Shown: positions 13,477 to 27,427, counted from the stretch's first letter. The stretch: DNA of 33,088 bases from Candidatus Falkowbacteria bacterium (GCA_903839955.1 CAIMEI010000053.1:1-33088), one strand, 5' to 3'. A program made the numbers and translations. The notes: generated by a model not told the origin, from the sequence alone.

Positions 13477-13744
13477 ATTATCAAAATATTTGTGCATTTT
13501 TCCGCTACGGGTTTTTTCTGGGGCAAAAACTAACTAACGTTATTTTTTGCTTAACGAAAAAACAGTAGCGAGAAAAACCCACAAATATTTGATAAACAGC
13601 TAATAAATAACCGTTTATCTTATTCTAAATAAAAAAAGCGACCTTTCGGCCACAGAGAGAAAATTAGCTAAAAATAGCTAAATAATCGCCTCGGCAAGAC
13701 TTATGTTGGTGCTTGCGGTCTGTGGCTTCGTTTTTGTTACTTAA
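13477..13744 (-). promoter_or_regulatory. structured 5' leader of rplJ (L10-leader-like attenuator)
   Basis: About 260 nt lie between the promoter and the start. A long-range 8-bp helix joins 13719-13726 and 13649-13656 (minus-strand reading GCCACAGA / TCTGTGGC). It is followed on the transcript by a GAAA-tetraloop hairpin (13641-13652) and a 7-U run (13631-13637). Further mutually exclusive helices lie next to the start codon (GGGTTTTT/AAAAAACCC and CGCTAC/GTAGCG). Confidence 0.45.
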
Positions 13745-13772
13745 ATAATAGCATAAATCCACGGAGTGTCAA
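13745..13772 (-). promoter_or_regulatory. sigma70-type promoter of the rplJL operon
   Basis: Minus strand: TTGACA (13772-13767), a 16-nt spacer, TATTAT (13750-13745). Confidence 0.6.
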
Positions 13773-13817
13773 GGTTTGAATAAAATTAAAAAAGACCCAT
13801 TTTTTGTAAACGGATCT

Positions 13818-14261
13818 TTAAGTTTTGATGAACTGAAAGTGATTGTTCTGACAGTCCACTATAATACCCTGCCCCTCGGGGATGGTTTTAAAAATTTCTA
13901 AGTTGGTAAACAAATAATGCTCGCCAAAGTACTTAGGGAAACGATCGCAATACTTGAAATTACTGACCAAGATGAGGTTGTCCTCGGCTTTAGACTCCAA
14001 AATTTCCAATAATTCGTGGAGCATCGCCGGACCAGCACCTGTCAAAAGCGGCTGTTCCTCGATAAAATAAATTAATTTTTCCGAGATTATCTGCGCACTC
14101 TCCTTGAAGATTAAGCCGGGCGGACTAAGAATTAAGCCCGAAGGTCCCTTTAGAACGGCGGCTAATTTTAAGGCGACGTTTTCCATTTTTTGCCGACCGA
14201 CCAATGATAAATGCCCATTCAAACCAAGGGCGCCATGATTAACCATTACTAATTTTTTCAT
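13818..14261 (-). CDS. histidine-phosphatase-superfamily paralog with degenerate catalytic residues
   Basis: 147 aa. Collinear with the upstream paralog (MKKLVMVNHG... versus MKKLVIIRHG...), but RHG has become NHG and the second catalytic His region LVTHRE has become LVSNFK. Confidence 0.65.
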   Translation of the reverse strand: MKKLVMVNHGALGLNGHLSLVGRQKMENVALKLAAVLKGPSGLILSPPGLIFKESAQIISEKLIYFIEEQPLLTGAGPAMLHELLEILESKAEDNLILVSNFKYCDRFPKYFGEHYLFTNLEIFKTIPEGQGIIVDCQNNHFQFIKT

Positions 14262-14326
14262 AATTCCGAATTTTAAGATTGTTAATGTATGCCTTAAAAT
14301 TAGCGTTTTAAAATCGCCCTGTCAAA

Positions 14327-14815
14327 TCAAGAATTGGCTTCGTCCGCTCTTGAGACAAGCAATCTGACGACCTCAGCGCTTTCGCAATCTATCATTGCCC
14401 CCTCTCCTTTGGCAAGTACGGGGAAACGAAACTGCTTTTCTAGGGGCTTGCCCTTCATGGATGAGCGGAAAAAAAGAGGAAAATCTTCACAGTATTCACG
14501 GTGCGTTACTAATACTATAAACTCGACTTCATTCTCCCTTTCCCTAATCAACCTCAGGAGAGCGGGAAAATCCACCGGGCGCCTCTTTTCAGACCAAAGC
14601 AGTCTATGACTTTCAAAAGATATGCCTAACGTATCGGCAATTATGGTCGCACTTTCCGAGGCACGATCGGCAATTGAGCTTAGAATCAAAACTGACCGGC
14701 CAGCAACTTCTTTTTTTAATAGTTGCGCTAGTGCCGTAATTTGATCAATACCCTCTTCGGACAGGTGCCCGTTGGCGTCATAATCTCCATGTCTGATAAT
14801 TACTAACTTTTTCAT
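14327..14815 (-). CDS. histidine phosphatase family protein (SixA/PGAM-like)
   Basis: 162 aa. RHG motif at residues 8-10 (MKKLVIIRHGDYDANGHLSEEG). Also SS..DRASESA and LVTHRE, consistent with branch-1 histidine phosphatases. Confidence 0.8.
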   Translation of the reverse strand: MKKLVIIRHGDYDANGHLSEEGIDQITALAQLLKKEVAGRSVLILSSIADRASESATIIADTLGISFESHRLLWSEKRRPVDFPALLRLIRERENEVEFIVLVTHREYCEDFPLFFRSSMKGKPLEKQFRFPVLAKGEGAMIDCESAEVVRLLVSRADEANS

Positions 14816-14854
14816 GGTTGAATTTTTAATGAATCAAAATATTTTTATTCCCCG

Positions 14855-14883
14855 ATATTACTCTGTATTATCAATTCTGTCAA
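14855..14883 (-). promoter_or_regulatory. sigma70-type promoter for the histidine phosphatase pair
   Basis: Minus strand: TTGACA (14883-14878), a 17-nt spacer, TAATAT (14860-14855). Confidence 0.6.
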
Positions 14884-14884
14884 T

Positions 14885-14923
14885 AAAAAACCGTCTTCCT
14901 TGTTCAAGAAAACGGTTATTTTT
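14885..14923 (-). terminator. intrinsic terminator overlapping the 3' end of the AlaE-like gene
   Basis: AACCGTCTT...AAGAAAACGGTT forms an imperfect stem. It is flanked by an A-run (14885-14890, a U-run on the minus transcript) and a T-run. Confidence 0.5.
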
Positions 14924-15428
14924 GGCGTTTTGCCCGGCGGTGATAATAATTTCTGGTTTTATCCAGAATAAAGCCGTAGAGCCAGCCCATAAATAAGTTG
15001 TCCAATATGTACAGTCCTGAGACGCGGAGAATGATTTTAATGCCAACGCCAACAAATAGGGCGACGCCAACATAAATCGGGATCTGATAAACCGAGAGGG
15101 CCAAAGCGTCAGAGAGCGCCCGGCGAAACCAGTGCCCGTTCAAGCGGACCCGGAACCAATCAATCAGACATCCCAGAAAATAAGCGCCAGCGAAGCGAAT
15201 GACATTGTAGATGATTCTCACCTCCCACCATTGCCTCATGTTAGTTCCGCCTAAAACTACTTCATAAAAAATAGTTAAGGCGCTAGTGATAATCCCGAAG
15301 ATTATCATGGTGACGGTATTGATTTTTATTTCTACCCAGGGAATTTTCAAATTCTTCCTGGCAGAAAATCCCAGCGGGATAGCCAGCGTTTTGGCACGCT
15401 GCAAACAGAAAAATTTGATTTTTTTCAT
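14916..15428 (-). CDS. alaE: L-alanine exporter AlaE family membrane protein
   Basis: 170 aa with 4 hydrophobic segments. From memory of E. coli AlaE, the C-terminal half aligns well: SDALALSVYQIPIYVGVALFVGVGIKIILRVSGLYILDNLFMGWLYGFILDKTR versus [55 protein letters not shown]. Confidence 0.65.
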   Translation of the reverse strand: MKKIKFFCLQRAKTLAIPLGFSARKNLKIPWVEIKINTVTMIIFGIITSALTIFYEVVLGGTNMRQWWEVRIIYNVIRFAGAYFLGCLIDWFRVRLNGHWFRRALSDALALSVYQIPIYVGVALFVGVGIKIILRVSGLYILDNLFMGWLYGFILDKTRNYYHRRAKRQK

Positions 15429-15478
15429 GGAAATTTTTTATTTGTTAATGAATCATGGCGCCCAGAGGAGCCAAGATA

Positions 15479-15507
15479 AAATTACTCTCTTTTTGACAAT
15501 TCGTCAA
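15479..15507 (-). promoter_or_regulatory. candidate promoter for the AlaE-like gene
   Basis: Minus strand: TTGACG (15507-15502), a 17-nt spacer, TAATTT (15484-15479). The -35 is part of an inverted repeat, TTTGAC-N5-GTCAAA. Confidence 0.5.
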
Positions 15508-15508
15508 A

Positions 15509-15536
15509 CAAAAAAGACGGCTCTTTGGGCCGTCCT
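15509..15536 (-). terminator. intrinsic terminator after the LMW-PTP gene
   Basis: On the minus transcript: GACGGC, a 7-nt loop, GCCGTC, followed by TTTTTT (plus-strand A-run 15510-15515). Confidence 0.65.
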
Positions 15537-15556
15537 TCCTGTTCTGAATAAATATT

Positions 15557-16012
15557 TTAGACTAATTTATTTTTCACCAGCCACTCCTCAACGTGCTCCT
15601 TGATGACGGCAAAAGTTTCTTTGGCAAACTGAACTGCTTTTTCCTGGTCGCCGCCGTTAACAGCCAAAAGTTCGTCGGGCATATCGGCGATATACCAAAT
15701 TTCATAGGCTTTTAGGTCACAGCCCAGTTCCTCACAACAAAAATCGTATTGTTTGACGCTCATGAAAATCAGTTCGTCCTGGTTCTCGATGATTTCTTTA
15801 GTGCTTTGAATCCAGTGCAAGGAAGCATATTTTTCCAAACCCTCTTCTTCCAAAAGATCGACGGTATAACCACCGATGGCGCCGTTAAGGTTACGCTTTG
15901 CTTCGATGCCACTGGAACTCACAGTGAGGCCAGGAATGTTTTTTGACTTCAAATAGGCTTCCGCCAAGCGACTGCGGAAGGTGTTGCCGGTGCAGACAAA
16001 ATGGATTTTCAT
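15557..16012 (-). CDS. low-molecular-weight protein-tyrosine phosphatase / ArsC-like
   Basis: 151 aa. N-terminal P-loop MKIHFVCTGNTFRSRLAEAYL (C-x5-R-S). Confidence 0.85.
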   Translation of the reverse strand: MKIHFVCTGNTFRSRLAEAYLKSKNIPGLTVSSSGIEAKRNLNGAIGGYTVDLLEEEGLEKYASLHWIQSTKEIIENQDELIFMSVKQYDFCCEELGCDLKAYEIWYIADMPDELLAVNGGDQEKAVQFAKETFAVIKEHVEEWLVKNKLV

Positions 16013-16440
16013 AATTTGGATATTTTCTTTAATTCTTTTTTAAGATTCTTTTCTTCATCGGTGCTTAAAATCTTTCGTACTGCCGTGTTAAGGCTCGTAT
16101 CTTGAATAAAGCCGCCGGGAATAATGTGGCCGTGCAGATGTTTGATGCTCTTACCCAAAGACCCGCTGTCCCTGGTCAGAAGTGTACAGTCATTATGACC
16201 GAGCTTGCCCAGGGTTTTCACGCCCGTCACAAATAAGGCTGTCATGCAGATATGCTCTTCCCAGGTCAGCTCCGCTAAATTTTCCACGTGGCGCTTGGGG
16301 ATCACCAGGAGATGATATTTGTGATAAGGCGCCAAGGAATAGGTGAGATAAGCCCCGTCATTTTCCAGGAGAATTTTACCCTTGATGTCCTCACAAAAGG
16401 GACAAACCTTCAGGTTTTTGAGATAAGTTAGGTATTTCAT
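16009..16440 (-). CDS. HIT family nucleotide hydrolase/transferase
   Basis: 143 aa. Histidine triad HLHGHIIP near the C-terminus and an N-terminal CPFC. It overlaps the downstream LMW-PTP start by 4 nt. Confidence 0.85.
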   Translation of the reverse strand: MKYLTYLKNLKVCPFCEDIKGKILLENDGAYLTYSLAPYHKYHLLVIPKRHVENLAELTWEEHICMTALFVTGVKTLGKLGHNDCTLLTRDSGSLGKSIKHLHGHIIPGGFIQDTSLNTAVRKILSTDEEKNLKKELKKISKL

Positions 16441-16486
16441 AATAAACTTATTTTAGCACAAATCCGACACTTTCCGGAAGTCGCTC

Positions 16487-16516
16487 TTGACATTTACCAG
16501 TTATTTATGATAAATT
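16487..16516 (+). promoter_or_regulatory. sigma70-type promoter (extended -10) of the small-paralog cassette
   Basis: TTGACA (16487-16492), an 18-nt spacer containing TG (16508-16509), TAAATT (16511-16516). The ATG is at 16553. Confidence 0.6.
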
Positions 16517-16552
16517 CAGCCATAGTTTATTAACAACCAAAAAAGAAAATAA

Positions 16553-16894
16553 ATGAACAAAGCCGCGACCGAATTTGAAATTGATGATTTGAAAAGGCAA
16601 ATTATCAATCACGAGAATCTCAGCAAGCAGATAAAGGATATTTTTCTAGCCCTAGTGAACAATAGTTGCCGCCTCACCAGAGCAGTCGCCTTTGCCGCCG
16701 AGGAAGAAATATTTCCCGCGCTCCTAAAAGGAGATACCGTTTGCCACTGCGTCATTCACGAGAGAAGATGCCTAACCGTTGAATGCGACCGTCAAAAAAA
16801 ACAATATCTGGTCTATTTTCAGCCAGACGTTAAAGAAAAAGTAATTTTCAACAGAAATCAGGCGGTAGTTATCGACCTTGAAGATATTAAATAA
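16553..16894 (+). CDS. small hypothetical protein, paralog A (Cys-containing)
   Basis: 113 aa. It lies between a consensus promoter and a strong terminator. It shares an N-terminal helix and a C-x4-C element with the next ORF. It also has an extra CHC...C (VCHCVIHERRCLTVEC). Confidence 0.6.
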   Translation: MNKAATEFEIDDLKRQIINHENLSKQIKDIFLALVNNSCRLTRAVAFAAEEEIFPALLKGDTVCHCVIHERRCLTVECDRQKKQYLVYFQPDVKEKVIFNRNQAVVIDLEDIK

Positions 16895-16900
16895 ATCATC

Positions 16901-17221
16901 GTGAACGATAACCAAGAAAAAATTCAGGTGATCAAAAACCAAATTTTGGCCCTGCCCTTCAACAACCAGCGCATGAAAAAAATAATGATTGCCCTCGTTG
17001 AAGAAAGCAAGCTGCACAAAGCTACTTCTTTTCAGCCCTCCAATCCAGACGACGGCTTTCCGGAATATTCTTATTTGAAATTCACTTTTCTCAATAAGTA
17101 TATTTTTAAAAGTGTTTGCCGGAAAGGACAATGCGTTGTCACCTATCGCCCCAAGGGCAATAAGGCGAGCGCCCGACCAATCACCGCCGAAAAAATAGAG
17201 GCAGTGATTATTAAAACTTAA
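16901..17221 (+). CDS. small hypothetical protein, paralog B
   Basis: 106 aa with a GTG start 6 nt after the stop of paralog A. IKNQILALPFNNQRMKKIMIALVEES aligns with LKRQIINHENLSKQIKDIFLALVNNS of A. The C-x4-C element is CRKGQC. Confidence 0.55.
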   Translation: MNDNQEKIQVIKNQILALPFNNQRMKKIMIALVEESKLHKATSFQPSNPDDGFPEYSYLKFTFLNKYIFKSVCRKGQCVVTYRPKGNKASARPITAEKIEAVIIKT

Positions 17222-17246
17222 AAACCGATTGTTAGTAATCGGTTTT
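17221..17246. terminator. bidirectional intrinsic terminator (small-paralog cassette / uvrC)
   Basis: AAAACCGATT, loop GTTAGT, AATCGGTTTT: a perfect 10-bp stem followed by a T-run. The uvrC stop codon (17232-17234) lies in the loop. Confidence 0.7.
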
Positions 17247-18413
17247 TTTATACCCTGAATTTTTCTTCGCTCCTCGTTTCCGGCCAAAGTTGGCAAAACG
17301 GTGCGCCTCTTCCCTGACCTTCAAAAGTACCGGTTTGAGATTTTTGAAAAGTTCTTTGGAATTGTCTTTGGTGCCGCGCGCAAACACCAGGCGGTCGCCG
17401 CCGAATTTGGAAATGCCTACTAGCGACGGGCGCAAATTTAGCTTCGCTAGCTCCCGAGTCAAGAAAGAAATCTGTGGTGAACCGCCGTCAATCATAATCA
17501 GATCTGGCATAGGCCACTCGGCGTGCTGAAAACGACGGGTCAGAACTTCCAGCAAGGCCCGTTCATCGTCACCGCCGGGGGCTTCCTGGAGCTTGAAGAG
17601 GCGGTACTGCGCTTTATCCGGCTCCGTACCGGAAAAGACCACCATCGAGCCATAAGAATCCTTGCCGGCCAAGTGAGAAATGTCATAGCCTTCAATGCGG
17701 TTGAGGTGCGGTGTCTCCAAATTCTCTTCCCGCATCAAGAGAGAAACATCTTGCAAGTGACGCAGGGCTTTTTCTTGGAGCGGATTTTCTTTGGCCAGCT
17801 GTTTCAAGAGTCTCGTCCTTTCTCCGGACAAAAGCATTTTCAAGTGCTTGATATTTTTTTGATAGTCCTTGGGCTTAATGATGCCCAGGCAGGAACCTGG
17901 ACATAGACCAACTTGATAATCAAAACAGGCTTTGCCATTATTTGGCACGCAGGTGCTCCAGGGGAAAACTCTCCGGATTAGCCTTAGAGCGTTCGCGATG
18001 AGAGTTTGCGATTGGTAGGGACCGAAAACCGTATAGCGGTCTTCGGGAAATTTCTTCAGGTCTTGGCCACGGATGATAATCGGCTTGGGATAGTCGCCGC
18101 TGGTGATGACGATATAAAGGAAAGAGCGATTGTCGCGGTCGCGAACATTATATTTCGGCCAATAGCTTTTAATCTCCTTGGCTTCCAAAATTATCGCCTC
18201 CAGCAAAGTTTCCGTTTCCTGCCAGCGCAAATCATGGGCGCTCGCCACCATTTCGGCAATGCGCCGCTCCACGTTTTTCTGAAAATATTGAGAAAGCCTA
18301 TTCTTGAGACTGGTCGCTCGGCCGACATAAAGAACTTCTCCATTTTCGTCTAACCAAAAATAAACGCCAGGCGCTTTGGGGGCTAATTTTGCTTTTTCTT
18401 TGGGGGTTGGCAT
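17232..18413 (-). CDS. uvrC: excinuclease ABC subunit C, shortened form
   Basis: 393 aa. N-terminal GIY-YIG (GVYFWLDENGEVLYVGRATSLKNRLSQYF). Cys-containing linker (CFDYQVGLCPGSC). C-terminal endonuclease domain (RIEGYDISHLAG ... DLIMIDGG ... EEAHRFA). Canonical UvrC is about 600 aa. Confidence 0.85.
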   Translation of the reverse strand: MPTPKEKAKLAPKAPGVYFWLDENGEVLYVGRATSLKNRLSQYFQKNVERRIAEMVASAHDLRWQETETLLEAIILEAKEIKSYWPKYNVRDRDNRSFLYIVITSGDYPKPIIIRGQDLKKFPEDRYTVFGPYQSQTLIANALRLIRRVFPWSTCVPNNGKACFDYQVGLCPGSCLGIIKPKDYQKNIKHLKMLLSGERTRLLKQLAKENPLQEKALRHLQDVSLLMREENLETPHLNRIEGYDISHLAGKDSYGSMVVFSGTEPDKAQYRLFKLQEAPGGDDERALLEVLTRRFQHAEWPMPDLIMIDGGSPQISFLTRELAKLNLRPSLVGISKFGGDRLVFARGTKDNSKELFKNLKPVLLKVREEAHRFANFGRKRGAKKNSGYKKTDY

Positions 18414-18433
18414 TTATAGGAATCCAAAAGAAA

Positions 18434-18787
18434 TTATAATTTTTCTAAAAAAATATCTATTTGCTCCAATAAATAAGAAGTCGCTCTATTTTTTCTTAAG
18501 GCTGTAATATTTTCGTTGCAATTAAAAAAAATTTCTGCACTTTTTAATTCATCATCAGATTCGTTTGAGTCTATATTATTTTTTAACGCCCAATCATCTC
18601 TATCAATAAAAAAGTCTTTATACCCAGGTCTATTATCTTCTTTGTAATTACCGTTTAGACCAGAAACCACCACTTTTAACTGGCTAGCAATATATTTATC
18701 CCCACATAAGCAAATATATGGTTCGTAAACAAATTTTATATTTATATTTTGACCTTTGATATTTTTGTATAATAGAAAATTATTCAT
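18434..18787 (-). CDS. hypothetical protein (AT-rich islet)
   Basis: 117-aa ORF in a visibly AT-rich stretch. It starts 8 nt after the upstream ORF and ends 20 nt before uvrC. No motif recognised. Confidence 0.5.
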   Translation of the reverse strand: MNNFLLYKNIKGQNINIKFVYEPYICLCGDKYIASQLKVVVSGLNGNYKEDNRPGYKDFFIDRDDWALKNNIDSNESDDELKSAEIFFNCNENITALRKNRATSYLLEQIDIFLEKL

Positions 18788-18795
18788 ACAAAATA

Positions 18796-19089
18796 TTATT
18801 TATATTGTTTATAGCAATTATCTTTAGCTGCTTGTATTTTGCTATCTAAATCTGGGATATACTGAAAATCCTTAGTAACAGGGTTCGTCTCTAGTTTTTT
18901 GACATTGTTAGTTGCATTGTCTAAACAAACAGACAATCCAACTTGCTTATCTTTTTCCATTTGCAACTCTATCTGTTGATACTTTTCAATAGACCGCTGT
19001 TTATTCGCCTGGCTGGCATAGTAAAATCCTCCAAGAATAAGCGAACATAATAAAATACTAGCTGGTAAAATTAATTTATGTTTATTCAT
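18796..19089 (-). CDS. hypothetical small membrane-anchored protein (AT-rich islet)
   Basis: 97 aa. N-terminal TM (LILPASILLCSLILGGFYYA). It starts 15 nt after the Fic stop. Confidence 0.5.
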   Translation of the reverse strand: MNKHKLILPASILLCSLILGGFYYASQANKQRSIEKYQQIELQMEKDKQVGLSVCLDNATNNVKKLETNPVTKDFQYIPDLDSKIQAAKDNCYKQYK

Positions 19090-19104
19090 ATTATATTTAT
19101 TATA

Positions 19105-20010
19105 TTATTTTTCAGTTATCCGACTTTTGTATTCAAAATCCTCGCCGATTTTCCAAACGCCTTTTTCTCGGAAAGCCGGAATGTTCTGGCGGCGCGCGGC
19201 ATTAATCATTCCTGGGGCGGAAAAATTATGCATCTTGGTATATTCGGAAAGAGTAATAATTTTTTGACCTTTAAGATAAGTGATTCTTTTATTTAATGAT
19301 TCGGTTAAAGCTAAGGCAATAACCCTTTCCATTGTTTTAGTATTCTTTTCGTCGCGATATCGTGAAAAGGATTGATAGTATTCTTTCTTTTCGCGATCTC
19401 TAATAATAATTATCGGAAAGCCCAGGCGTTGCAACTGAAAACAAATCAACACCCGGCCAATACGGCCATTGCCATCACAAAATGGATGAATAGTTTCAAA
19501 ATCTAAATGAAATTTAGCAATTTTATCCAAAAAATAATTAGCTAAATCACTGGTATATTCGGTGATGATCGCTTCAATCATCCGCTCAACATGTTCCGGC
19601 GCCGGGGCGACATGAGTTCCGACGCGAACATATTCACCAAGCTTTCTAAAACGCCCAGCAATATTATCATCAATTCCGCCAATCAGCATTTGATGCAAAA
19701 GCAAAATTGTTTCTTTGTTGGTCTCAGTTTCTTTGCTCTTATTGCGAATGTAGCCGATAACGCGAGCCAAATTTTTAGCTTCGTAAACTTCGCGCAAAGA
19801 AACATCGCGCGAGACCTCCATGTCCAAAAGAATCTTCTCAGTTTCTTTGAGGGTTAGGGTGGAATTCTCAATAGCGTTGGAATTATAAACGCTTTCTGGC
19901 GCTTCTGCTTCGTCAATCATCACCAAAAGAGACTCCTTGCCCTGGCGAAGAGTGTCATATTCGCTTTTTAAGGCTGTGAGCCTGTCTTTTATCGGTTTTG
20001 TGACCGCCAT
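19105..20010 (-). CDS. Fic family protein (class II, intramolecular inhibitory motif) with C-terminal HTH-like tail
   Basis: 301 aa. Fic motif HPFCDGNGRIGR (nt 19453-19488). N-terminal SNAIEN (nt 19864-19881) fits the [S/T]xxxE[G/N] inhibitory-helix motif. The C-terminal ITLSEYTKMHNFSAPGMINAARRQNIPAFREKGVWKIG resembles excisionase/HTH_17-type domains. Confidence 0.9.
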   Translation of the reverse strand: MAVTKPIKDRLTALKSEYDTLRQGKESLLVMIDEAEAPESVYNSNAIENSTLTLKETEKILLDMEVSRDVSLREVYEAKNLARVIGYIRNKSKETETNKETILLLHQMLIGGIDDNIAGRFRKLGEYVRVGTHVAPAPEHVERMIEAIITEYTSDLANYFLDKIAKFHLDFETIHPFCDGNGRIGRVLICFQLQRLGFPIIIIRDREKKEYYQSFSRYRDEKNTKTMERVIALALTESLNKRITYLKGQKIITLSEYTKMHNFSAPGMINAARRQNIPAFREKGVWKIGEDFEYKSRITEK

Positions 20011-20035
20011 ATAGTTTATTATTTAATATAATAGT

Positions 20036-20064
20036 ATTATAGACGATTTACATAAAAAAGTCAA
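20036..20064 (-). promoter_or_regulatory. sigma70-type promoter for the Fic gene
   Basis: Minus strand: TTGACT (20064-20059), a 17-nt spacer, TATAAT (20041-20036). Confidence 0.6.
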
Positions 20065-20065
20065 T

Positions 20066-20108
20066 ATTTAGTGAATTACACCCATTTTTTACTTCCTATT
20101 CACTAAAT
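20066..20108. repeat. perfect 11-bp inverted repeat (terminator for uvrA and/or operator at the Fic promoter)
   Basis: ATTTAGTGAAT (20066-20076) and ATTCACTAAAT (20098-20108) are separated by 21 nt. The repeat lies 15 nt downstream of the uvrA stop and abuts the Fic -35 box. Confidence 0.6.
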
Positions 20109-20123
20109 TATCTAATAATCCCT

Positions 20124-22658
20124 TTATTTCCCCTTCTCCTTCGCCACCGTGAAATCCAGATACTCCTTCAAATATTTGCCCGTGATACTCTTCTCGTTCT
20201 TGGCCACTTCTTCCGGCGTGCCATAGGCGACAATCTTACCGCCCTTCTCGCCGCCTTCCGGACCGAGGTCGACAATGTAGTCCATCGACTTGAGCATGTG
20301 CAGATTGTGCTCAATCACCAAAACGGAATTGCCCTTCTCCACTAATTGATTCAAAACGACGAGCAGCATTTCAATATCGTGATAGTGCAAGCCGGTCGTC
20401 GGCTCATCCAAAAGATAGAGCGTGCGCTTACCCAAGGTCATGCTCAGCTCCTTGGCGATTTTGACGCGTTGCGCTTCCCCACCAGAGAGGGTGGTGGAAG
20501 ATTGGCCGAGTTTCAAGTAACCCAAACCGACGGCGTCCAAAACCTTTAATCTATCGGTAATTAAATAGTTTCCGTCAAACAAATCAATCGCTTCCACGAC
20601 GGTCATATCCAAAACATCGGCAATGCTTTTACCTTTGTATTTGACCTGCAAAGTTTCGCGGTTAAACCGCTTGCCACGGCAGACTTCGCACTCCACCAAA
20701 ACGGCTGGCAAGAAATGCATTTCAATCATATTGAAACCGGCACCTTCGCAAGCTTCACAGCGACCACCTGGACGATTAAAAGAAAAGCGGCCGATGCTGT
20801 AGGCGCGTTCACGCGATTCTGGCAGGGCGGCAAAGAAGTCGCGAATGGGAGTGAAGAAGCCGGTGTAGGTCGCCGGGTTGGAGCGCGGTGAACGGCCGAT
20901 TGGCGACTGGTCGATGATGACCACCTTGCTGACATATTCGGCCCCTTTGAGCTCGGTGACATCCTCTAGCTTGGCCTTCCCCGGACGGCTCTTTAAGTGA
21001 ACAAGATTTTTATACAACACGTCATAAAGCAAGGAAGATTTGCCGCTTCCCGAGACGCCACTGACCCCAACCAGGCGGCCGAGCGGGATCTCAACTTTGA
21101 GGTTTTTCAGGTTATTTGCGCGCGCCCCGATGAATTTTAACGATCCCCGGCTCTTGTCGCGGCGCTTTTTGGGAACTTCAATCTTCTTGACGCCGGTCAA
21201 ATATTGTACTGTTAGTGACTTTTTTAAGGCCTGCTTATTTTTGTCGGGATTCGTCAAATCTTTGATGTCACCAATGGCCACCACTTCCCCGCCATGTACC
21301 CCGGCTAAGGGGCCGAGATCGACCAGGTAGTCGGAGGCGAGGATGGTGCGCTCATCGTGCTCGACGATGAGCACGGTGTTGTTCTTGTTGCGTAAGGTCT
21401 TGAGAGTTTCAATTAAACGATCAGTGTCACGCTCGTGCAAGCCGATGGTCGGCTCATCCAAAACGTATAGAGTACGTGAGAGTTGAGAGCCAATTTGTGA
21501 GGACAGGCGAATACGCTGCGCTTCCCCACCAGAGAGAGTTTCGGCTTCGCGATCCAGTGATAAATAGTCCAAACCGACGCGATTCAAAAAGTCCAGGCGG
21601 TTTAAAATTTGGCCAATCACGTTCTCGGCAATCGTCAGCTCGCGTTTGGTCATTTTCTGATAGTACTTCCAAAAAAAGTCGTGCAGCTTTTCAAGCGACA
21701 GCGCACCAACCTCGGCGAGGTTCTTCCCGTGAACACGGACCGAAAGGGCTTCGGGGCGCAATCTTTTCCCACCGCAAGCCGGGCAATCTTTCTCGGCAAA
21801 ATAACCGATCTTTCCTAGGCCGGTACATTCCGGACAAGCCCCGTGTGGGGAATTAAAAGAAAACAACCTCGGCTCCACTTCCGGAAAAGAAAAGCCATCA
21901 TTGGGGCAAGTCCAATTGGAGGAAAGCAGAAATTCCTGGTCCTCAAAATTAGCAATCACCAGCCCCTTGCTATAGTTGATGGAATTTTCCACGGCTTCAA
22001 AAAGTCGCGTTTCATCGGAAAGCATCACCTTGTCGATGACAACATCAATACTGTGTTTCTGGTTGGCGGAGAGTTTTATTTTACTGCGCAGAGGATGTTT
22101 GACGCCATCAATGCGCGCCTCAAAATATCCAAGATGGATATAGTCATAAATCAGCTGATAATACTCGCCTTTACGGTCACGAACGACCGGACTGATAATG
22201 GTGACGTACTCTTTTTTTGCTTCCTTGCCCCGCGTGAGGATGATATCAATCATTTCTTCCAGGGACAGCTTTTCAATCTTGGTCCCGCAGTGCGGACAAA
22301 AGACTTCCCCAACCCGAGCATAAAGGATACGCAAATAGTCGTGAATCTCCGTCAGGGTGCCGACAGTGGAACGCGGATTGTGGGAGAGAGCTTTTTGGTC
22401 AATGGAAATGGCCGGCGCCAAGCCGATGATTTCGTCCACTTCGGCCGGTTTTTTTTGGCCGAGGAATTGGCGCATGTAGGGCGATAGGGATTCGACGTAC
22501 TGCCGCTGCCCTTCGGCAAAAATGGTATCAAAAGCCAGCGACGATTTGCCACTGCCGGAAACGCCGGTAATCACCGTCAAAGAATTATGCGGTATTTCCA
22601 GGCTGATATTTTTCAAATTGTGCATCCGCGCACCGCGGATGATGATTTTTTCGTCCAT
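20124..22658 (-). CDS. uvrA: excinuclease ABC subunit A, lacking the insertion domain
   Basis: 844 aa. It is collinear with E. coli UvrA from MDEKIIIRGARMHNLKNISL and has two ABC modules (GVSGSGKSSL twice; LSGGEAQR twice). Canonical UvrA is about 940 aa. Confidence 0.96.
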   Translation of the reverse strand: MDEKIIIRGARMHNLKNISLEIPHNSLTVITGVSGSGKSSLAFDTIFAEGQRQYVESLSPYMRQFLGQKKPAEVDEIIGLAPAISIDQKALSHNPRSTVGTLTEIHDYLRILYARVGEVFCPHCGTKIEKLSLEEMIDIILTRGKEAKKEYVTIISPVVRDRKGEYYQLIYDYIHLGYFEARIDGVKHPLRSKIKLSANQKHSIDVVIDKVMLSDETRLFEAVENSINYSKGLVIANFEDQEFLLSSNWTCPNDGFSFPEVEPRLFSFNSPHGACPECTGLGKIGYFAEKDCPACGGKRLRPEALSVRVHGKNLAEVGALSLEKLHDFFWKYYQKMTKRELTIAENVIGQILNRLDFLNRVGLDYLSLDREAETLSGGEAQRIRLSSQIGSQLSRTLYVLDEPTIGLHERDTDRLIETLKTLRNKNNTVLIVEHDERTILASDYLVDLGPLAGVHGGEVVAIGDIKDLTNPDKNKQALKKSLTVQYLTGVKKIEVPKKRRDKSRGSLKFIGARANNLKNLKVEIPLGRLVGVSGVSGSGKSSLLYDVLYKNLVHLKSRPGKAKLEDVTELKGAEYVSKVVIIDQSPIGRSPRSNPATYTGFFTPIRDFFAALPESRERAYSIGRFSFNRPGGRCEACEGAGFNMIEMHFLPAVLVECEVCRGKRFNRETLQVKYKGKSIADVLDMTVVEAIDLFDGNYLITDRLKVLDAVGLGYLKLGQSSTTLSGGEAQRVKIAKELSMTLGKRTLYLLDEPTTGLHYHDIEMLLVVLNQLVEKGNSVLVIEHNLHMLKSMDYIVDLGPEGGEKGGKIVAYGTPEEVAKNEKSITGKYLKEYLDFTVAKEKGK

Positions 22659-22670
22659 ATTTTCTGATTA

Positions 22671-23246
22671 TTACTGGAAAGGATTGGGAGCGGAAAAACT
22701 GATCAGATCCAGGTGATGATTAATAAATTCAATCGGCGTACCATATTTGCGGTTATACAAGAAATCCACGGAGCAGAAAAAGGCCTGATGGTAGTCAAAA
22801 CCCAATTTGGCACTCACTTCTTTAACCGCTTCTTCGGAGTCGCCTTCCACTTCTACTAGGGGCTCGAGATAGGGCCATTCATCAAGGGTTATTTCCACGC
22901 CATCTAGCTTCCAGAGTTCCCGCTTGGTCTCCTGATAGGCCTTGCGCCGACAGCCAATGCTGGTGAGAAAATCCACTGCTTCGTCAAAATTGTCCACTTC
23001 CAGACAGGTTTCTTTCTGGTTATCAATTTGACCGCCACTGACGACTTTCAGGCTCATGGTGATCTTGTCGTATTCCCGACGAACTCTTAGCCAGCCGTCT
23101 TTGATTTCGTGACCGACCGGCAATTCAAAGACCTCTCGGGTCATCATGAACTCCGGATGAATGCGCTCCGCCCCGGCTTTTTCCAAGCGCGCGCGGATCT
23201 CGTCTTTGTTTATTTCAATAAAAGTGGCTTCAAATTCGGTTTTCAT
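22671..23246 (-). CDS. CYTH domain protein (CyaB/ThTPase-like)
   Basis: 191 aa. N-terminal EFEATF (an ExExK-like motif with Thr in place of Lys), then WLRVRRE, ITMSLKV, KETCLEVD, ETKRELWKLDGVEITLDEW and LVEVEG. Together these match the CYTH strand pattern. Confidence 0.75.
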   Translation of the reverse strand: MKTEFEATFIEINKDEIRARLEKAGAERIHPEFMMTREVFELPVGHEIKDGWLRVRREYDKITMSLKVVSGGQIDNQKETCLEVDNFDEAVDFLTSIGCRRKAYQETKRELWKLDGVEITLDEWPYLEPLVEVEGDSEEAVKEVSAKLGFDYHQAFFCSVDFLYNRKYGTPIEFINHHLDLISFSAPNPFQ

Positions 23247-23254
23247 ATTAATAA

Positions 23255-24880
23255 TTAGGCCTGCCCTTCCGGCTGATTATAGTTCCAGTTTGGATGGTAG
23301 TAGGTATTATCTTGCTTTCCGGACTCGGCTAGATCGTCAAACAGTTTACGGAAATTTTCATAGCCTTTTTCGGAGTGAAAAAGATCCTTCATGTGAGAAA
23401 TTAATTCTCGAGAATTTTTCCCGAAACAATTAGGGTCATTGTAATATGTATCGATAATTTCCCGGTAAATTTCTTTAGTAAATTTTTCGCCCCTCTTCAT
23501 TATTCCCATATCAATCAGCTCGTTTTGCAAAATTTTTAAGCGTACATAGCGTTCAGTGGCTTTTTTATAATAATCATTATCTGATTGATCGCCGACGGAA
23601 TCTTTGTCTGTAAAGTCGGGGGCATAGGTTGTTTCTGACAGAATTTTTTGAGCAGCCAGGGAGAGTCCGGAATTTCCGTTGGTAGATTCGTGGTGCAGTT
23701 CATGTTCAATGGCGGTTTGGAAGAAGTCATCGATTTCCACATCAAGCGGTATTGTCACTTTATTGGTACCATTTGAAAAATAGGCATAACCACCAGACTC
23801 CTTGTCAATATCTTTGCTGAATTCAAAAACCGCTTCGGCATTATCCACATTTTTGATTCTCACCTGCTGGTGCTTTAGGGCTTTGGCGCGGTTAATCTTA
23901 AATTCCTTCATCAATCGATCCACGTAGCTGGAGTCTTTAATTGTATTCAGTACTCGCCCTTTGGCTTCTTGAAAAATTTTCATGATTAAAGGCGCCCGCT
24001 CAATAAGCTTGTGATCTTCAAGTTTGAACTCCGCGTCCTGGCCAGAAATAGCCTCAGCTAGCCTTTTTTGCAGTTCGGCCAAAGTATTTCTAATGTCTTT
24101 AACTAAATCCTCGTCAGCCTCCTTGTTGCCTTCAAGGTCCTTCAGATAGCTTTTATTCATTTCAATTTCGTCATTCAAGTCGCTGATATTCCTGTCGATC
24201 ATCGCCTCCTTAATTATGTCGGAAGAAATGTTACTGAGATTGATTCCTGGATTTTTCTTTTTCAAGTCTTTTTTGGCTTCAACAAATCTTTTCTTGTAGA
24301 TTTGATCGGCAATCATTTTTTTGGCCAAAACGCTGTCGGTCGCCGCTTTTTCCTGTCTATCTAAATGATGATGATTGATCTTATAAATACGAGTTAAATC
24401 GTATTCATTGGGACTCAGGTTGCGGACGGTCTCTTCTGTCGGCAGTGCTTCTTCTTCCTGGCTATCCTCCTCTATGTTGGCCTGGCGGATATTCCGAACA
24501 ATGGGCGCTTCATCTTTATTGCTATAATAATTATCTATTTCTTGCAGGAGCCCTGACATCAAACCGCCGGACAAGGCGATGGGGATGAATTCACGGCCGA
24601 TGCGGCTATGGCGTAAAATTTCCAAGACGCTGCGTTGAGATTTTTCTTTTTCTTGTCGAACTTCCTGGTTCGCCTTCTTAATAATAGTAAAGACTTCCGG
24701 ATTATCCGGAAAACTTTCCGTGATTTTTTCGCCCGACTCCACCACGTGCTTTTCGCTGGCTGAAGCGGTTTCAATAAAATCCTGCAAAGCCTGACGAGCT
24801 CCTTCGAGGCCGGGCTCTTTGATTTCACCAGATTCAACGATCGGCGTTTCTTCCTGATTGTCTAAAATTTCTTTGGACAT
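23255..24880 (-). CDS. hypothetical acidic/coiled-coil protein with C-terminal HExxH (zincin-like) motif
   Basis: 541 aa. The N-terminal two thirds are rich in E/K/D and look helical. HELHH lies at residues 393-397 (nt 23690-23704), preceded by beta-like segments (GGYAYFSNGTNKVTIPLDV). Confidence 0.75.
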   Translation of the reverse strand: MSKEILDNQEETPIVESGEIKEPGLEGARQALQDFIETASASEKHVVESGEKITESFPDNPEVFTIIKKANQEVRQEKEKSQRSVLEILRHSRIGREFIPIALSGGLMSGLLQEIDNYYSNKDEAPIVRNIRQANIEEDSQEEEALPTEETVRNLSPNEYDLTRIYKINHHHLDRQEKAATDSVLAKKMIADQIYKKRFVEAKKDLKKKNPGINLSNISSDIIKEAMIDRNISDLNDEIEMNKSYLKDLEGNKEADEDLVKDIRNTLAELQKRLAEAISGQDAEFKLEDHKLIERAPLIMKIFQEAKGRVLNTIKDSSYVDRLMKEFKINRAKALKHQQVRIKNVDNAEAVFEFSKDIDKESGGYAYFSNGTNKVTIPLDVEIDDFFQTAIEHELHHESTNGNSGLSLAAQKILSETTYAPDFTDKDSVGDQSDNDYYKKATERYVRLKILQNELIDMGIMKRGEKFTKEIYREIIDTYYNDPNCFGKNSRELISHMKDLFHSEKGYENFRKLFDDLAESGKQDNTYYHPNWNYNQPEGQA

Positions 24881-24883
24881 ATT

Positions 24884-25048
24884 TTATGACGACAAAGACG
24901 AGGAAAGCTCTTCGTGCTTTTCTTTGTCCTGCTTTTTTAAAACGGCGGCGATTTTTTGATCGCGCTCATTAAGGATCCGACTGAACCGTTCCTTGAAAGC
25001 GGTTTCTATTTTTTTTAATTCGGCCGAGATTTTTTCTGCCTCGTTCAT
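24884..25048 (-). CDS. 54-aa ORF, candidate stand-alone UVR-like helical hairpin
   Basis: It is below the ORF-track length cutoff. Own translation: MNEAEKISAELKKIETAFKERFSRILNERDQKIAAVLKKQDKEKHEELSSSLSS. It starts 11 nt after the uvrB stop and ends 3 nt before the next gene. Without it there would be a 179-nt gap in an otherwise tightly packed operon. Confidence 0.45.
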   Translation of the reverse strand: MNEAEKISAELKKIETAFKERFSRILNERDQKIAAVLKKQDKEKHEELSSSLSS

Positions 25049-25059
25049 ATTATTAAAAA

Positions 25060-26952
25060 TTAATTTTCGGCGTGATCCAGCATGTCCTCAATCTTTTTGA
25101 TGACGGTCTGCGGTGTGATGCCATGCTTCTTATTATACTCTAATTGTTTGATTCGGCGACGGCGCGATTCGGAAATTGCCCGCTCCATGGAGTCAGTAGT
25201 TTTGTCGGCATATAAAATAATCCGGCCCAAAACGTTACGCGCCGCCCGGCCCATTGTCTGCAACAAAGAAGTTTGACTACGCAAGAATCCTTCACGATCA
25301 GCATCCAAAATAGCTACCAGAGTCACCTCCGGCAAATCCAAGCCTTCACGGAGCAGATTAACGCCAATCAGGACATCAAATTTCCCCTCCCGGAATTGCT
25401 TGAGAATTTCCGTGCGCTCAAAAGTTTTGATGTCGGAGTGGAGATAGTTGGCCTGTAAACCTTTTTGGTTCAAAAAAGTGCTCAAATCCTCAGCCTGGGC
25501 CTTGGTTAAAGTATTAATAATCACTCGCTCGCCTTTGGCGGCGAGCACTTCCGCCTCAGCCATGATGTCATTAATCTGGCTATAGTTTTTTTCCTTATCA
25601 AAAACCGGACGGATTTCAATTTCTGGATCCACCAGGCCGGTCGGACGAATTACCTGTTCCACCACTTTGGTGGAATGCTCTCTTTCAAAATCTCCAGGCG
25701 TGGCGGACGTAAAAATGGTCTGACCGATGCGCTTCAAGAATTCCGCAAAGCGCAAAGGACGATTATCCATCGCCGAGGGCAAGCGCCAGCCGTATTGCAC
25801 CAGCGTTTTCTTGCGCGCCTGGTCGCCATTGAACATGCCGCGCACTTGCGGAACGGAAATATGCGATTCATCAATCACCGTCAAAAAATCCGGCTTGTCA
25901 TCCTTCCAGGGAAAATAGGCCAAAAGTGAATCCGGCGCCTGGCCGGCTAATTTGCCGGTGAGATGGCGAGAATAGTTTTCGATGCCGTGGCAATAACCAA
26001 GTGAGCGCAGCATTTCCATGTCGTAGTGCGTGCGGCGCTCCAAGCGCTCGGCCTCCAAAAGCAGGCCAGCCTCGCGGAAATAAGCCAGGCGGTCGTTCAA
26101 TTCTTCTTCAATATGCTTCACCGCCGCTTCCACTTGCGGCTGAGTGGAAACAAAATGCTTAGGCGGGAAAATCATAATTTCCGGCAGGGACTCCAAAATG
26201 TTCTTGGTGGTGTTATCGATTACTGAAATTTCTACTACTTTTTGGTCGGCCAGTTCAAAGCGATAAACGAGATTTTCCGATTTCGGCCGCACCTCAAAAA
26301 CATCGCCGCGCACCCGAAATTGGCCGCGCTCCACTTCGCCGTTGACCCGCTCAAATTGCATTTTGATGAGCTGGCGGATTAAATCGGCGCGCGTCATCGT
26401 CTGCTCTTTTTCCAAGCGCAAAGCAGATTCCAAATAGTTGAAGGGGATACCGAGATTGTAAATGCAAGAAACGGAAGCGACAATAATCACGTCGCGCCGC
26501 GTCATCAATGAAGAAGTGGCGGCGTGGCGCAGACGGTCAATTTCCTGATTGATCATCGCCTCCTTGTCGATGTAAGTGTCCGTGATCGGCAAATAAGCCT
26601 CCGGCTGATAATAGTCGTAATAGGAAACAAAATAATGCACCGCGTTATTGGGAAAAAAATTCTTGTATTCACGGTAGAGCTGAGCGGCCAGCGCTTTGTT
26701 TGGCGCAATCACCAGGGTCGGCCGATTAAATTCAGAAATCACCTTGGCGGCCGTGAAAGTCTTGCCGCTGCCGGTAACGCCCAAAAGAGTCTGGAAGGCG
26801 GCGCCGGATTTCAGACCTTCAAGCAGCCCCTTGATGGCCTCAGGCTGATCACCGGCCGGCTCAAAAGGCGATTGCAAGTCAAAAAGCGGTGTTTCAGATT
26901 TCTGAACACCGTCTTTTGAGATTTTGGTCTTTTTGAGCGTTGATTGGGCCAT
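25060..26952 (-). CDS. uvrB: excinuclease ABC subunit B, lacking the C-terminal UVR domain
   Basis: 630 aa. It shows Walker A (GVTGSGKTFT), the DESH box (VIDESHISVPQ), helicase motifs (GINLLREGLDLPEV, QTMGRAARN) and HGITPQT near the end. It terminates about 60 aa earlier than E. coli UvrB. Confidence 0.96.
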   Translation of the reverse strand: MAQSTLKKTKISKDGVQKSETPLFDLQSPFEPAGDQPEAIKGLLEGLKSGAAFQTLLGVTGSGKTFTAAKVISEFNRPTLVIAPNKALAAQLYREYKNFFPNNAVHYFVSYYDYYQPEAYLPITDTYIDKEAMINQEIDRLRHAATSSLMTRRDVIIVASVSCIYNLGIPFNYLESALRLEKEQTMTRADLIRQLIKMQFERVNGEVERGQFRVRGDVFEVRPKSENLVYRFELADQKVVEISVIDNTTKNILESLPEIMIFPPKHFVSTQPQVEAAVKHIEEELNDRLAYFREAGLLLEAERLERRTHYDMEMLRSLGYCHGIENYSRHLTGKLAGQAPDSLLAYFPWKDDKPDFLTVIDESHISVPQVRGMFNGDQARKKTLVQYGWRLPSAMDNRPLRFAEFLKRIGQTIFTSATPGDFEREHSTKVVEQVIRPTGLVDPEIEIRPVFDKEKNYSQINDIMAEAEVLAAKGERVIINTLTKAQAEDLSTFLNQKGLQANYLHSDIKTFERTEILKQFREGKFDVLIGVNLLREGLDLPEVTLVAILDADREGFLRSQTSLLQTMGRAARNVLGRIILYADKTTDSMERAISESRRRRIKQLEYNKKHGITPQTVIKKIEDMLDHAEN

Positions 26953-26976
26953 AAATTACTTAACTCTTAACCAACA

Positions 26977-27005
26977 ATTTTAACGAAAAATCGCTAAAAA
27001 GTCAA
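26977..27005 (-). promoter_or_regulatory. sigma70-type promoter of the uvrB operon
   Basis: Minus strand: TTGACT (27005-27000), a 17-nt spacer, TAAAAT (26982-26977), 25 nt upstream of the uvrB ATG. Confidence 0.6.
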
Positions 27006-27043
27006 TATTTGCCGCCATCATTCCGAGCAACTAGCCAATTACT

Positions 27044-27427
27044 TTATTTTACCAAATATTTCTGCAGATTGGCCTGAGATTGCGGTGAACTATGCTTGCC
27101 GACGGAGTGGAACATTGCGCTTGCATCCTGTCCGCAACCGTTTAAAATCTTGTTCCCGCCCGGATGCATGCCGGATTGAACGTAAGGAGTGACATTATAG
27201 GTCTGGCCATCAATAATCATCCAGCAATCCGTGGCGCTATTGTGCTTGGCAACTTCTGCTAAGGCGGCCGGCGTAGCCGCTGGCGCGGTCACTTGCGTAT
27301 CACTGGCGCTTACTGCCGGGGTGTTGCTAGCCGGGGCAGCCGTCGGAGCGGTTGTTTGGCTCGCACAGGCCGCCAGAAAAAGCGGCGCGAGAACAAGCAA
27401 AGAGATCAAAAGGTGTTTTTTCTTCAT
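27044..27427 (-). CDS. cytochrome b5-like heme/steroid-binding domain lipoprotein
   Basis: 127 aa. Lipobox signal peptide (LVLAPLFLAAC|AS), a Thr/Ala/Pro-rich linker, then VAKHNSATDCWMIIDGQTYNVTPYVQSGMHPGG with the HPGG signature of cytochrome b5-like domains. Confidence 0.8.
   Translation of the reverse strand: MKKKHLLISLLVLAPLFLAACASQTTAPTAAPASNTPAVSASDTQVTAPAATPAALAEVAKHNSATDCWMIIDGQTYNVTPYVQSGMHPGGNKILNGCGQDASAMFHSVGKHSSPQSQANLQKYLVK

Follow-up and report, generated by a model that had tools for sequence, protein, structure and literature searches.

A CYTH protein gene and an orf54-p541 zincin-like gene pair lie between uvrB and uvrA in a Candidatus Falkowbacteria genome

In the DNA analysed here (33,088 nucleotides (nt) from a Candidatus Falkowbacteria bacterium, GCA_903839955.1 CAIMEI010000053.1:1-33088; hereafter the window, meaning this whole stretch), the nucleotide excision repair (NER) genes uvrB and uvrA enclose three further genes, in the minus-strand order uvrB, orf54, p541, CYTH and uvrA, where p541 is our name for a 541-amino-acid (aa) protein with an HExxH motif. 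The reading that we prefer, and that we hold with slightly more confidence than doubt, is that this block forms a lineage-specific, co-transcribed genome-integrity array, which would carry a housekeeping CYTH enzyme and a surface-protease cassette riding on the operon of its host genes. A preliminary description of the locus had proposed that the HExxH and CYTH proteins assist NER, and our analysis indicates that the two are probably not NER subunits. The synteny of the uvr cluster is robust and previously undescribed, and our findings speak against a new repair mechanism. Indeed, full-text literature searches returned no paper describing a CYTH or HExxH protein inside an uvr operon.

Results

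Organization of the uvrB-uvrA block

The genes of the block and the signals around them are the following:

26977-27005, minus strand: promoter-like site TTGACT-N17-TAAAAT upstream of uvrB, 10 of 12 consensus positions
25060-26952, minus strand: uvrB, 630 aa (NF003673, 917.9 bits against a cut-off of 743)
24884-25048, minus strand: orf54, 54 aa, small, charged and probably helical, first gene of the orf54-p541 cassette
23255-24880, minus strand: p541, 541 aa, predicted single-pass membrane protein of no known family
22671-23246, minus strand: CYTH / triphosphate-tunnel-type protein, 191 aa (PF01928, 35.4 bits against 23.2, residues 47-147)
20124-22658, minus strand: uvrA, 844 aa (NF001503, 1180.8 bits against a cut-off of 1147)
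20066-20108, no strand: 11-nt perfect inverted repeat ATTTAGTGAAT / ATTCACTAAAT with a 21-nt loop, A+T-rich, after uvrA
20036-20064, minus strand: promoter-like site TTGACT-N17-TATAAT just after uvrA and before a Fic gene, 11 of 12 positions

The intergenic gaps within the block are 11, 3, 8 and 12 nt, and an open reading frame (ORF) call reproduced the coordinates of the five same-strand genes as first described. The site upstream of uvrB, also reported at that time, sits within the 91-nt gap that follows a cytochrome-b5-like lipoprotein gene (27044-27427). When the minus strand was scanned from 16.5 to 28 kb (11.5 kb), the sole match better than this one was the site at 20064-20036; the block is thus bracketed by the two best minus-strand promoter-like sites of the region, the second of which likely marks the downstream limit of the uvrB-uvrA unit. 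The inverted repeat after uvrA (arms at 20066-20076 and 20098-20108), which had been taken for the first terminator, is real, but its A+T-rich composition means that it is not a classical one. The accompanying claim that the block contains no terminator has to be softened, since weak terminator-like hairpins do occur inside the coding sequences (26 against the 15.7 +/- 3.7 of shuffled sequence), where weak promoter-like matches (9 of 12 positions) are found as well (26 against 17.6 +/- 3.6). These counts are a modest excess over shuffled sequence and neither support nor exclude internal signals.

With gaps of at most 12 nt and promoter-like sites on both sides, the five genes look like, and probably are, one transcription unit, in line with the co-transcription originally suggested from the DNA. 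Note that the block belongs to a co-directional gene run of about 14.5 kb (12949-27427) that ends at the gene for ribosomal protein L10 and mixes functions, and tight co-directional packing is therefore nothing special to the uvr genes. No structured RNA was found in the window at Rfam gathering scores. The cytochrome-b5-like protein encoded directly upstream of uvrB bears a lipoprotein-type signal sequence, and such a gene also lies near uvrB in other loci (L002, L006, L009, L016, L019, L084).

The CYTH protein family and its uvr linkage

More than 1200 relatives of the CYTH protein were found, the best 120 listed being 61-100% identical to it and all named ones belonging to Patescibacteria; the family holds about 60-80% identity across Falkow-, Moran-, Woese-, Uhr- and Vogelbacteria lineages. 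Among 27 aligned sequences, R54, R56, K67, K102, R109, E118, D122, E123, E128 and E132 are invariant; these are basic and acidic residues of the kind expected in a CYTH active site, and they would line the triphosphate tunnel. The N-terminal signature motif of the CYTH family is ExExK; here E4 and E6 are invariant, and each of the 27 sequences has Thr where the motif has Lys (ExExT). In addition, the C-terminus of the family is extended by about 40 conserved residues, the last of which are NPF. The window protein gave a weak profile match to the Pyrococcus CYTH structure 1yem (E = 1.3e-3), stayed below the class IV adenylate cyclase model CyaB (TIGR00318, 23.9 bits against a cut-off of 57.95), and matched no family among the PADLOC defence and PHROGs phage families. 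Bacterial CYTH enzymes that have been characterised are mostly triphosphatases and not cyclases (PMC3440374). Compared with the known CYTH/TTM enzymes (NeuTTM, YgiF, CthTTM and CyaB), the window protein shares the PF01928 match and the conserved acidic and basic residues, but it differs by its ExExT motif, its C-terminal extra region, its CyaB score below the cut-off and its position between uvrB and uvrA.

The genomic context of CYTH was surveyed with one genome per species, which gave 524 confirmed loci, the best 80 of which were analysed with the window proteins. CYTH lies between or beside uvrB and uvrA in 26 of these 80 Patescibacteria loci, with uvrC usually a few genes downstream, and in about 20 of the 26 fewer than 65 nt separate the end of CYTH from uvrA. 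The remaining loci have no uvr gene, and at least 26 of them have full 10-kb flanks (Moran-, Woese-, Uhr-, Vogel- and other lineages). In the uvr-linked clade the usual layout is uvrB-CYTH-uvrA-(EamA transporter)-(Ogt-like)-uvrC, and NUDIX, GNAT, deoxyribosyltransferase-like or PNPOx-like genes stand at times between uvrB and uvrA. The neighbourhood of CYTH is enriched in NUDIX, Maf and nucleoside-deoxyribosyltransferase-like genes, which fill 19 of 280 positions at a distance of up to two genes and 16 of 974 positions beyond (odds ratio 4.4, P = 3e-5). The GC content of CYTH equals that of the uvr genes (0.48-0.50). CYTH is thus a conserved core member of the array of this clade, while the family overall is independent of uvr genes. 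A gene of about 195 aa on the opposite strand, with a signal peptide and no Pfam family, stands between uvrB and CYTH in L002, L019, L020, L082 and L084, and in those genomes there is therefore no simple transcript shared by uvrB and CYTH-uvrA.

The zincin-like domain of p541

The protein p541 consists of an N-terminal helical region, a hydrophobic segment, a disordered linker, a helical stalk and a C-terminal zincin-like domain, with these features:

24542-24595, minus strand: Gly/Ala-rich hydrophobic segment REFIPIALSGGLMSGLLQ, aa 96-113, predicted membrane anchor
23321-23995, minus strand: zincin-like catalytic domain, about aa 296-520 (AlphaFold2 (AF2) pLDDT 88.6, pTM 0.85)
23690-23704, minus strand: HELHH, an HExxH motif, aa 393-397, predicted metal-binding and catalytic motif
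23552-23554, minus strand: codon of E443, predicted third zinc ligand, within the motif TERYVR; invariant in 139 sequences

The HExxH motif on which the preliminary description relied is present as HELHH. Searches of p541 against Pfam, NCBIfam, PADLOC and PHROGs matched no family, and word-seeded homologue searches, with p541 as well as with the profile of its family, found p541 itself and nothing else. In contrast, exhaustive HMMER searches recovered 146 representative relatives, 71 of them below 1e-10, that have in common a C-terminal domain of about 250 residues. Conservation was judged on 71-139 sequences with a mean column identity of 8-18%: E394, H397 and E443 are invariant, H393 is kept in at least 90% (71 sequences), Y437 is invariant or nearly so, and R447 nearly so. 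Judged from these alignments, the HExxH...Y...E arrangement is a predicted gluzincin-type site under strong selection. The C-terminal end of the family, beyond a linker modelled with low confidence, is a conserved aromatic motif, TYYHPxWxY (window 23255-23330), which could be a sorting or binding signal.

The AF2 model of full-length p541 (pLDDT 81) shows strands at 349-353, 367-368 and 374-378 (pLDDT >90), the HExxH helix at 385-399 and the E443 helix at 441-458. Zincin-like peptidases of polyvalent proteins have been described as a beta-sheet with an HExxH helix and then a helix that bears Glu (PMC5512222), and the domain model of p541 has the same order. Fold searches, which had been recommended as a check on this protein, gave a divided answer. 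The full-length model returned helical-repeat noise only and the domain found nothing significant in the PDB (best neprilysin, E of about 0.4), but virion-domain folds of phages were matched in BFVD, namely structural proteins of Cellulophaga phages phi14:2 (E = 1.4e-5, TM 0.64) and phi4:1 (E = 3.3e-4, TM 0.55), together with proteins of crAss-like phages and weaker polyvalent-protein and IrrE-like matches (IrrE-type, E = 0.029). Moreover, PF18818 (MPTase-PolyVal) is weakly matched by 13 of the 71 relatives (best E = 4.8e-4), though not by the window p541 itself.

Predicted membrane topology of p541

Of 139 relatives of p541, 121 have a Gly/Ala-rich hydrophobic segment ahead of the catalytic domain, and none has one after it. 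The flank on the N-terminal side of this segment is more positive than the C-terminal one in 113 of the 121 (means +2.4 against -0.6). The segment begins within the first 35 residues in 60 relatives, 45 of which have a small-x-small motif after it, and some relatives resemble proteins with classical signal peptides, e.g., MNKFEKNLKKVVGIGAITSLSLGSIAEAQS in L089. The window p541 is a long form, in which about 95 N-terminal helical residues stand ahead of a weaker segment. By simple rules of hydrophobicity and positive-inside flanks, used here instead of a dedicated predictor, p541 is predicted to be N-in/C-out, with its zincin domain outside the cytoplasm.

The orf54-p541 cassette and its contexts

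In several loci, ORFs resembling orf54 directly precede long-form p541 homologues, at distances of -8 to +5 nt. A hidden Markov model (HMM) built from 7 orf54 homologues and run against 6051 ORFs retrieved only ORFs directly upstream of long-form p541, the distant case of L102 included (E = 6.6e-6). Neither Pfam nor the PDB yielded a relative of the orf54 protein, which also matched nothing in NCBIfam or PHROGs and gave in PADLOC a chance-level match only (E = 0.0047). Compared with the nearest relative of the window (L001), the Uvr proteins are 87-89% identical (UvrB 87%) and CYTH 79%, and p541 is 36% identical; likewise, the GC content of orf54-p541 is 0.42 against 0.48-0.50 for the uvr genes and CYTH. 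These contrasts suggest that orf54 and p541 form a fast-evolving two-gene cassette.

Loci anchored on p541 were obtained from a metagenome scan, for which a 16-sequence alignment subset was used because the 71-sequence set has no sufficiently conserved stretch, and from exact-sequence look-ups; 17 informative loci were retained and 3 uninformative contigs excluded. Homologues of p541 adjoin uvrB and/or uvrA in 11 of the 17 (L081-L084, L086-L088, L092, L099, L100 and L104), and this adjacency persists at 24-36% protein identity. The arrangements vary: uvrB-(orf54)-p541-CYTH-uvrA, uvrB-CYTH-p541-uvrA, uvrB-p541-uvrA without CYTH, and two copies flanking CYTH or in tandem. Note that in the uvr-linked clade the majority of genomes carry uvrB-CYTH-uvrA and no p541. 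The preliminary description had asked whether its two genes are syntenic with uvr genes elsewhere. They are, CYTH in 26 of 80 and p541 in 11 of 17 loci, and the uvr association of both genes is therefore real.

In L089 (1858-3877; also in L090) a LexA-like repressor gene is followed, 82 nt downstream, by a p541 homologue that has a classical signal peptide; the match of the repressor to TIGR00498 (E = 3e-25) is below the curated cut-off. Other contexts account for 5 of the 17 loci. In L102 (4868-8064; also in L103), a three-gene unit is found inside a pyruvate:ferredoxin oxidoreductase (POR) operon, between the genes of the alpha and beta subunits, on the same strand and with tiny gaps; it consists of a 306-aa p541 paralogue of short, secreted type, a small ORF like orf54 (about 54-64 aa, according to the start codon taken) and a long paralogue of 687 aa. 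The four others are a p541 pseudogene beside an XRE-type gene (L085), a homologue between RsmI-like and MetG-like genes (L091) and one before an RNase HII-like gene (L095), these neighbours of L091 and L095 being named by eye, and a homologue within a variable region (L096).

Shortened Uvr proteins and the insertion before uvrC

One further gene of the repair cluster lies downstream of the block:

17232-18413, minus strand: uvrC, 393 aa (TIGR00194, 293.3 bits against a cut-off of 285.45)

UvrA, UvrB and UvrC each score above their NCBIfam equivalog cut-offs. UvrB residues 24-628 align to positions 2-597 of the 653 of NF003673, with UvrB_inter, Helicase_C and UvrB domains in Pfam, and the protein ends about 10 residues past its PF12344 match. 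In UvrA, residues 286-834 align to NF001503 positions 403-941 and UvrA_inter is present, but nothing in the protein corresponds to about 110 positions of the model (roughly 290-402), those of the insertion/DNA-binding domain. UvrC contains GIY-YIG and RNase-H-like domains only. Pfam and NCBIfam scans found no DNA-binding domain in UvrA and no UVR or HhH domain in UvrB and UvrC, and the equivalents in relatives are equally short (about 611, 835 and 390 aa for UvrB, UvrA and UvrC). The expression "reduced NER machine", used earlier for this locus, is therefore apt, all three Uvr proteins being shortened by domain scan. The possibility that orf54 is a detached UVR domain, replacing those of UvrB and UvrC, was rejected, because it has no PF02151 match and retrieves no UvrB or UvrC chain at E up to 10, and because its partner is p541 and not uvrB.

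In well-studied bacteria uvrA, uvrB and uvrC are usually dispersed, and we know of no metalloprotease-like or CYTH component that canonical NER needs. The window system resembles canonical UvrABC in that its three proteins pass the equivalog scores, and it differs in that the genes are clustered and all three proteins shortened. As had been noted, uvrC follows on the same strand after an insertion of three genes (18434-20064), which encode a Fic protein and unknown proteins of 97 and 117 aa. A near-consensus promoter-like site (11 of 12) stands before this insertion, across which the GC content drops from 0.40 to 0.26; relatives hold an EamA transporter and an Ogt-like gene in its place. The Fic protein matches the candidate defence families PDC-S04 and SoFic (E = 3e-35), and a 51%-identical Fic gene is found 6 kb from the p541 homologue in L096. 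After uvrC, again on the same strand, a HIT-family nucleotide hydrolase/transferase gene (16009-16440) adds a nucleotide-metabolism flavour to the array.

Comparison of p541 with known peptidase systems

The closest likeness is to MPTase-PolyVal (PF18818; the C-terminal domain of ArdC, also in phage virion proteins), with which p541 shares a small sheet, an HExxH helix and a Glu-bearing helix, its best fold matches being domains of Cellulophaga and crAss-like phage proteins. However, the window p541 reaches no Pfam threshold and ArdC is not among the 50 PDB matches listed. In addition, p541 is encoded by a stand-alone chromosomal gene among housekeeping genes, with an anchor, a stalk and a partner ORF, and is not a multidomain phage or plasmid protein.

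SprT, Wss1 and SPRTN combine an HExxH motif and a third His ligand with a DNA-binding module. They resemble p541 as HExxH proteases, here encoded among DNA-repair genes, but the third ligand of p541 would be Glu and not His, its domain is predicted to be extracellular, and no DNA-binding module and no sequence or fold match to these proteins was detected. From ImmA/IrrE it is set apart by the lack of a Pfam match and by a fold match that is weak only (E = 0.029), a repressor-type neighbour being found only in L085 and L089.

The active site of anthrax lethal factor contains HExxH, Tyr and then Glu at a characteristic spacing. With a Tyr about 40 residues after HExxH and a Glu 6 residues further, p541 presumably resembles this lethal-factor (M34) site, which we regard as a lead. 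The peptidase domain of polyvalent proteins has itself been linked to lethal factor (PMC5512222). In our sequence and fold searches, p541 did not match lethal factor, and Certhrax alone surfaced (E = 1.1).

Discussion

We propose that two unrelated passengers, CYTH and orf54-p541, may share the transcription of UvrB and UvrA in a Patescibacteria lineage related to Falkowbacteria-type metagenome-assembled genomes. CYTH would be a cytoplasmic triphosphate hydrolase fixed between uvrB and uvrA in this clade, whose most likely substrate would be a triphosphate (inorganic triphosphate or a (d)NTP-type compound) and whose role would be nucleotide-pool or polyphosphate housekeeping. Such a role would fit a genome-integrity neighbourhood (uvrB, NUDIX, uvrA, ogt-like, uvrC and HIT genes) without making CYTH a subunit of NER; in other clades CYTH tends to be found beside NUDIX, Maf and nucleoside-deoxyribosyltransferase-like genes. 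As for the cassette, orf54 would be a small helical cytoplasmic protein, and p541 would join cytoplasmic N-terminal helices and a helical stalk to an extracytoplasmic gluzincin-type domain (HExxH, Tyr, Glu). The invariance of its catalytic residues suggests that p541 is probably an active peptidase at the cell surface. Without a recognisable promoter of its own, the cassette would ride host operons, uvrB-uvrA here, POR in another lineage and the position after lexA in a third. Its variable position and copy number, its absence in most clade members and the POR-operon case fit a riding cassette better than an NER subunit, and so do the predicted extracytoplasmic domain, the Glu-type zincin and the lack of a DNA-binding module.

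Several observations weigh against this account. The hydrophobic segment of the window p541 is short and weak, with 12 uncharged residues and a Kyte-Doolittle value of about 1.2-1.5. The invariant Thr at the Lys position of ExExK means that the chemistry of CYTH may differ from that of characterised members. The P value of the enrichment of NUDIX, Maf and nucleoside-deoxyribosyltransferase-like genes around CYTH is optimistic, because the counts include related genomes. Finally, uvr adjacency in 11 of the 17 p541 loci, with one lexA case in addition, exceeds what a neutral passenger would need, although most of it probably reflects shared ancestry in one clade.

The repeated placement at uvrBA and the single lexA case would allow for a link to DNA damage through regulation, a possibility that we consider unlikely but the best of the alternatives. 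The cassette would then be a damage-inducible envelope effector, kept beside uvrBA or lexA for co-induction. Two types of damage-response neighbours, uvrB/uvrA (11 loci) and the LexA-like gene directly upstream (L089/L090), agree with this possibility, as do the predicted extracytoplasmic topology and the fact that the uvr linkage outlasts rearrangement relative to CYTH. In other bacteria, the SOS-induced membrane checkpoint proteins YneA, ChiZ and SidA are encoded next to lexA, and the cassette would follow a similar logic. However, the lexA adjacency occurs in one lineage only, and five loci lie in unrelated contexts, the POR operon included. Inspection of the sequences upstream of uvrB at 25 loci showed no conserved operator motif of the LexA-box kind, and in many relatives uvrB starts a few bases after another gene. 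A bolder form of this proposal, in our judgement somewhat more doubtful still, is that the zincin cassette, with a secreted or membrane-anchored product, and possibly CYTH too, was recruited into the DNA-damage response in one clade of the candidate phyla radiation (CPR) and acts at the envelope. To the same slight degree we entertain that the recruited cassette, co-expressed with uvrBA or lexA, might halt division or remodel the attachment surface of an ultra-small episymbiont during repair.

The proposal of the preliminary description, that p541 and CYTH assist a reduced UvrABC as accessory factors, with p541 trimming DNA-protein crosslinks and CYTH handling a nucleotide or polyphosphate cofactor or signal, appears to us improbable. 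It draws on the recurrence of uvrB/uvrA synteny in several arrangements, on the missing domains of the window Uvr proteins, which make extra factors conceivable, and on the invariant catalytic residues of p541. Moreover, bacterial NER handles only crosslinked proteins below about 12-14 kDa (review PMC6945406), so a protease for crosslinks would be sensible, yet the idea clashes with the predicted topology, since a catalytic domain outside the cytoplasm, as predicted in 113 of 121 relatives, some of them with classical signal peptides, argues against action on DNA-protein adducts. Pfam scans detected no DNA-binding domain in p541 or its relatives, and p541 is a Glu-type zincin with no SprT or Wss1 among the PDB fold matches listed. 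In addition, the cassette is also found in a POR operon, after lexA and in unrelated contexts, and p541 is missing from most clade genomes that have uvrB-CYTH-uvrA. For CYTH, the proposal does not agree with a pan-Patescibacteria family that is mostly unlinked to uvr genes (at least 26 full-flank loci without such a neighbour) and that has NUDIX/Maf/nucleoside-deoxyribosyltransferase-like neighbours. A variant in which the weak segment is not an anchor, and p541 is a cytoplasmic protease that feeds crosslinked DNA to the reduced UvrABC, is less likely.

An equally improbable alternative is chance adjacency in a dense genome, with no functional or transcriptional link and a promoter of its own, so far unrecognised, for each gene: the co-directional run of mixed, unrelated functions at 12949-27427, the weak internal promoter-like matches and the opposite-strand ORF that parts uvrB from CYTH in some relatives are consistent with it, but promoters outside coding sequence could not fit into gaps of 3-12 nt, the distance from CYTH to uvrA is below 65 nt in about 20 genomes, and the p541-uvr adjacency recurs at 24-36% protein identity.

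Conclusions

The genomes of CPR/Patescibacteria are tiny, and most of the proteins specific to their lineages lack an explanation. The family defined here, previously undescribed, consists of CPR-restricted, probably surface-exposed zinc peptidases (146 representative clusters) for which Pfam and NCBIfam have no model, and it is unusual by its small partner gene and its habit of sitting within housekeeping operons. Beside it stands a CYTH enzyme that is highly conserved, departs from the usual signature motif and has become fixed between uvrB and uvrA in one clade. If the zincin was recruited to act at the envelope, it would be a new type of output of the bacterial damage response, and a regulatory link to DNA damage would offer a first handle on the stress responses of organisms not yet grown alone. 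If the link is instead transcriptional hitch-hiking, the locus would be a caution against inferring function from operon position in these genomes.

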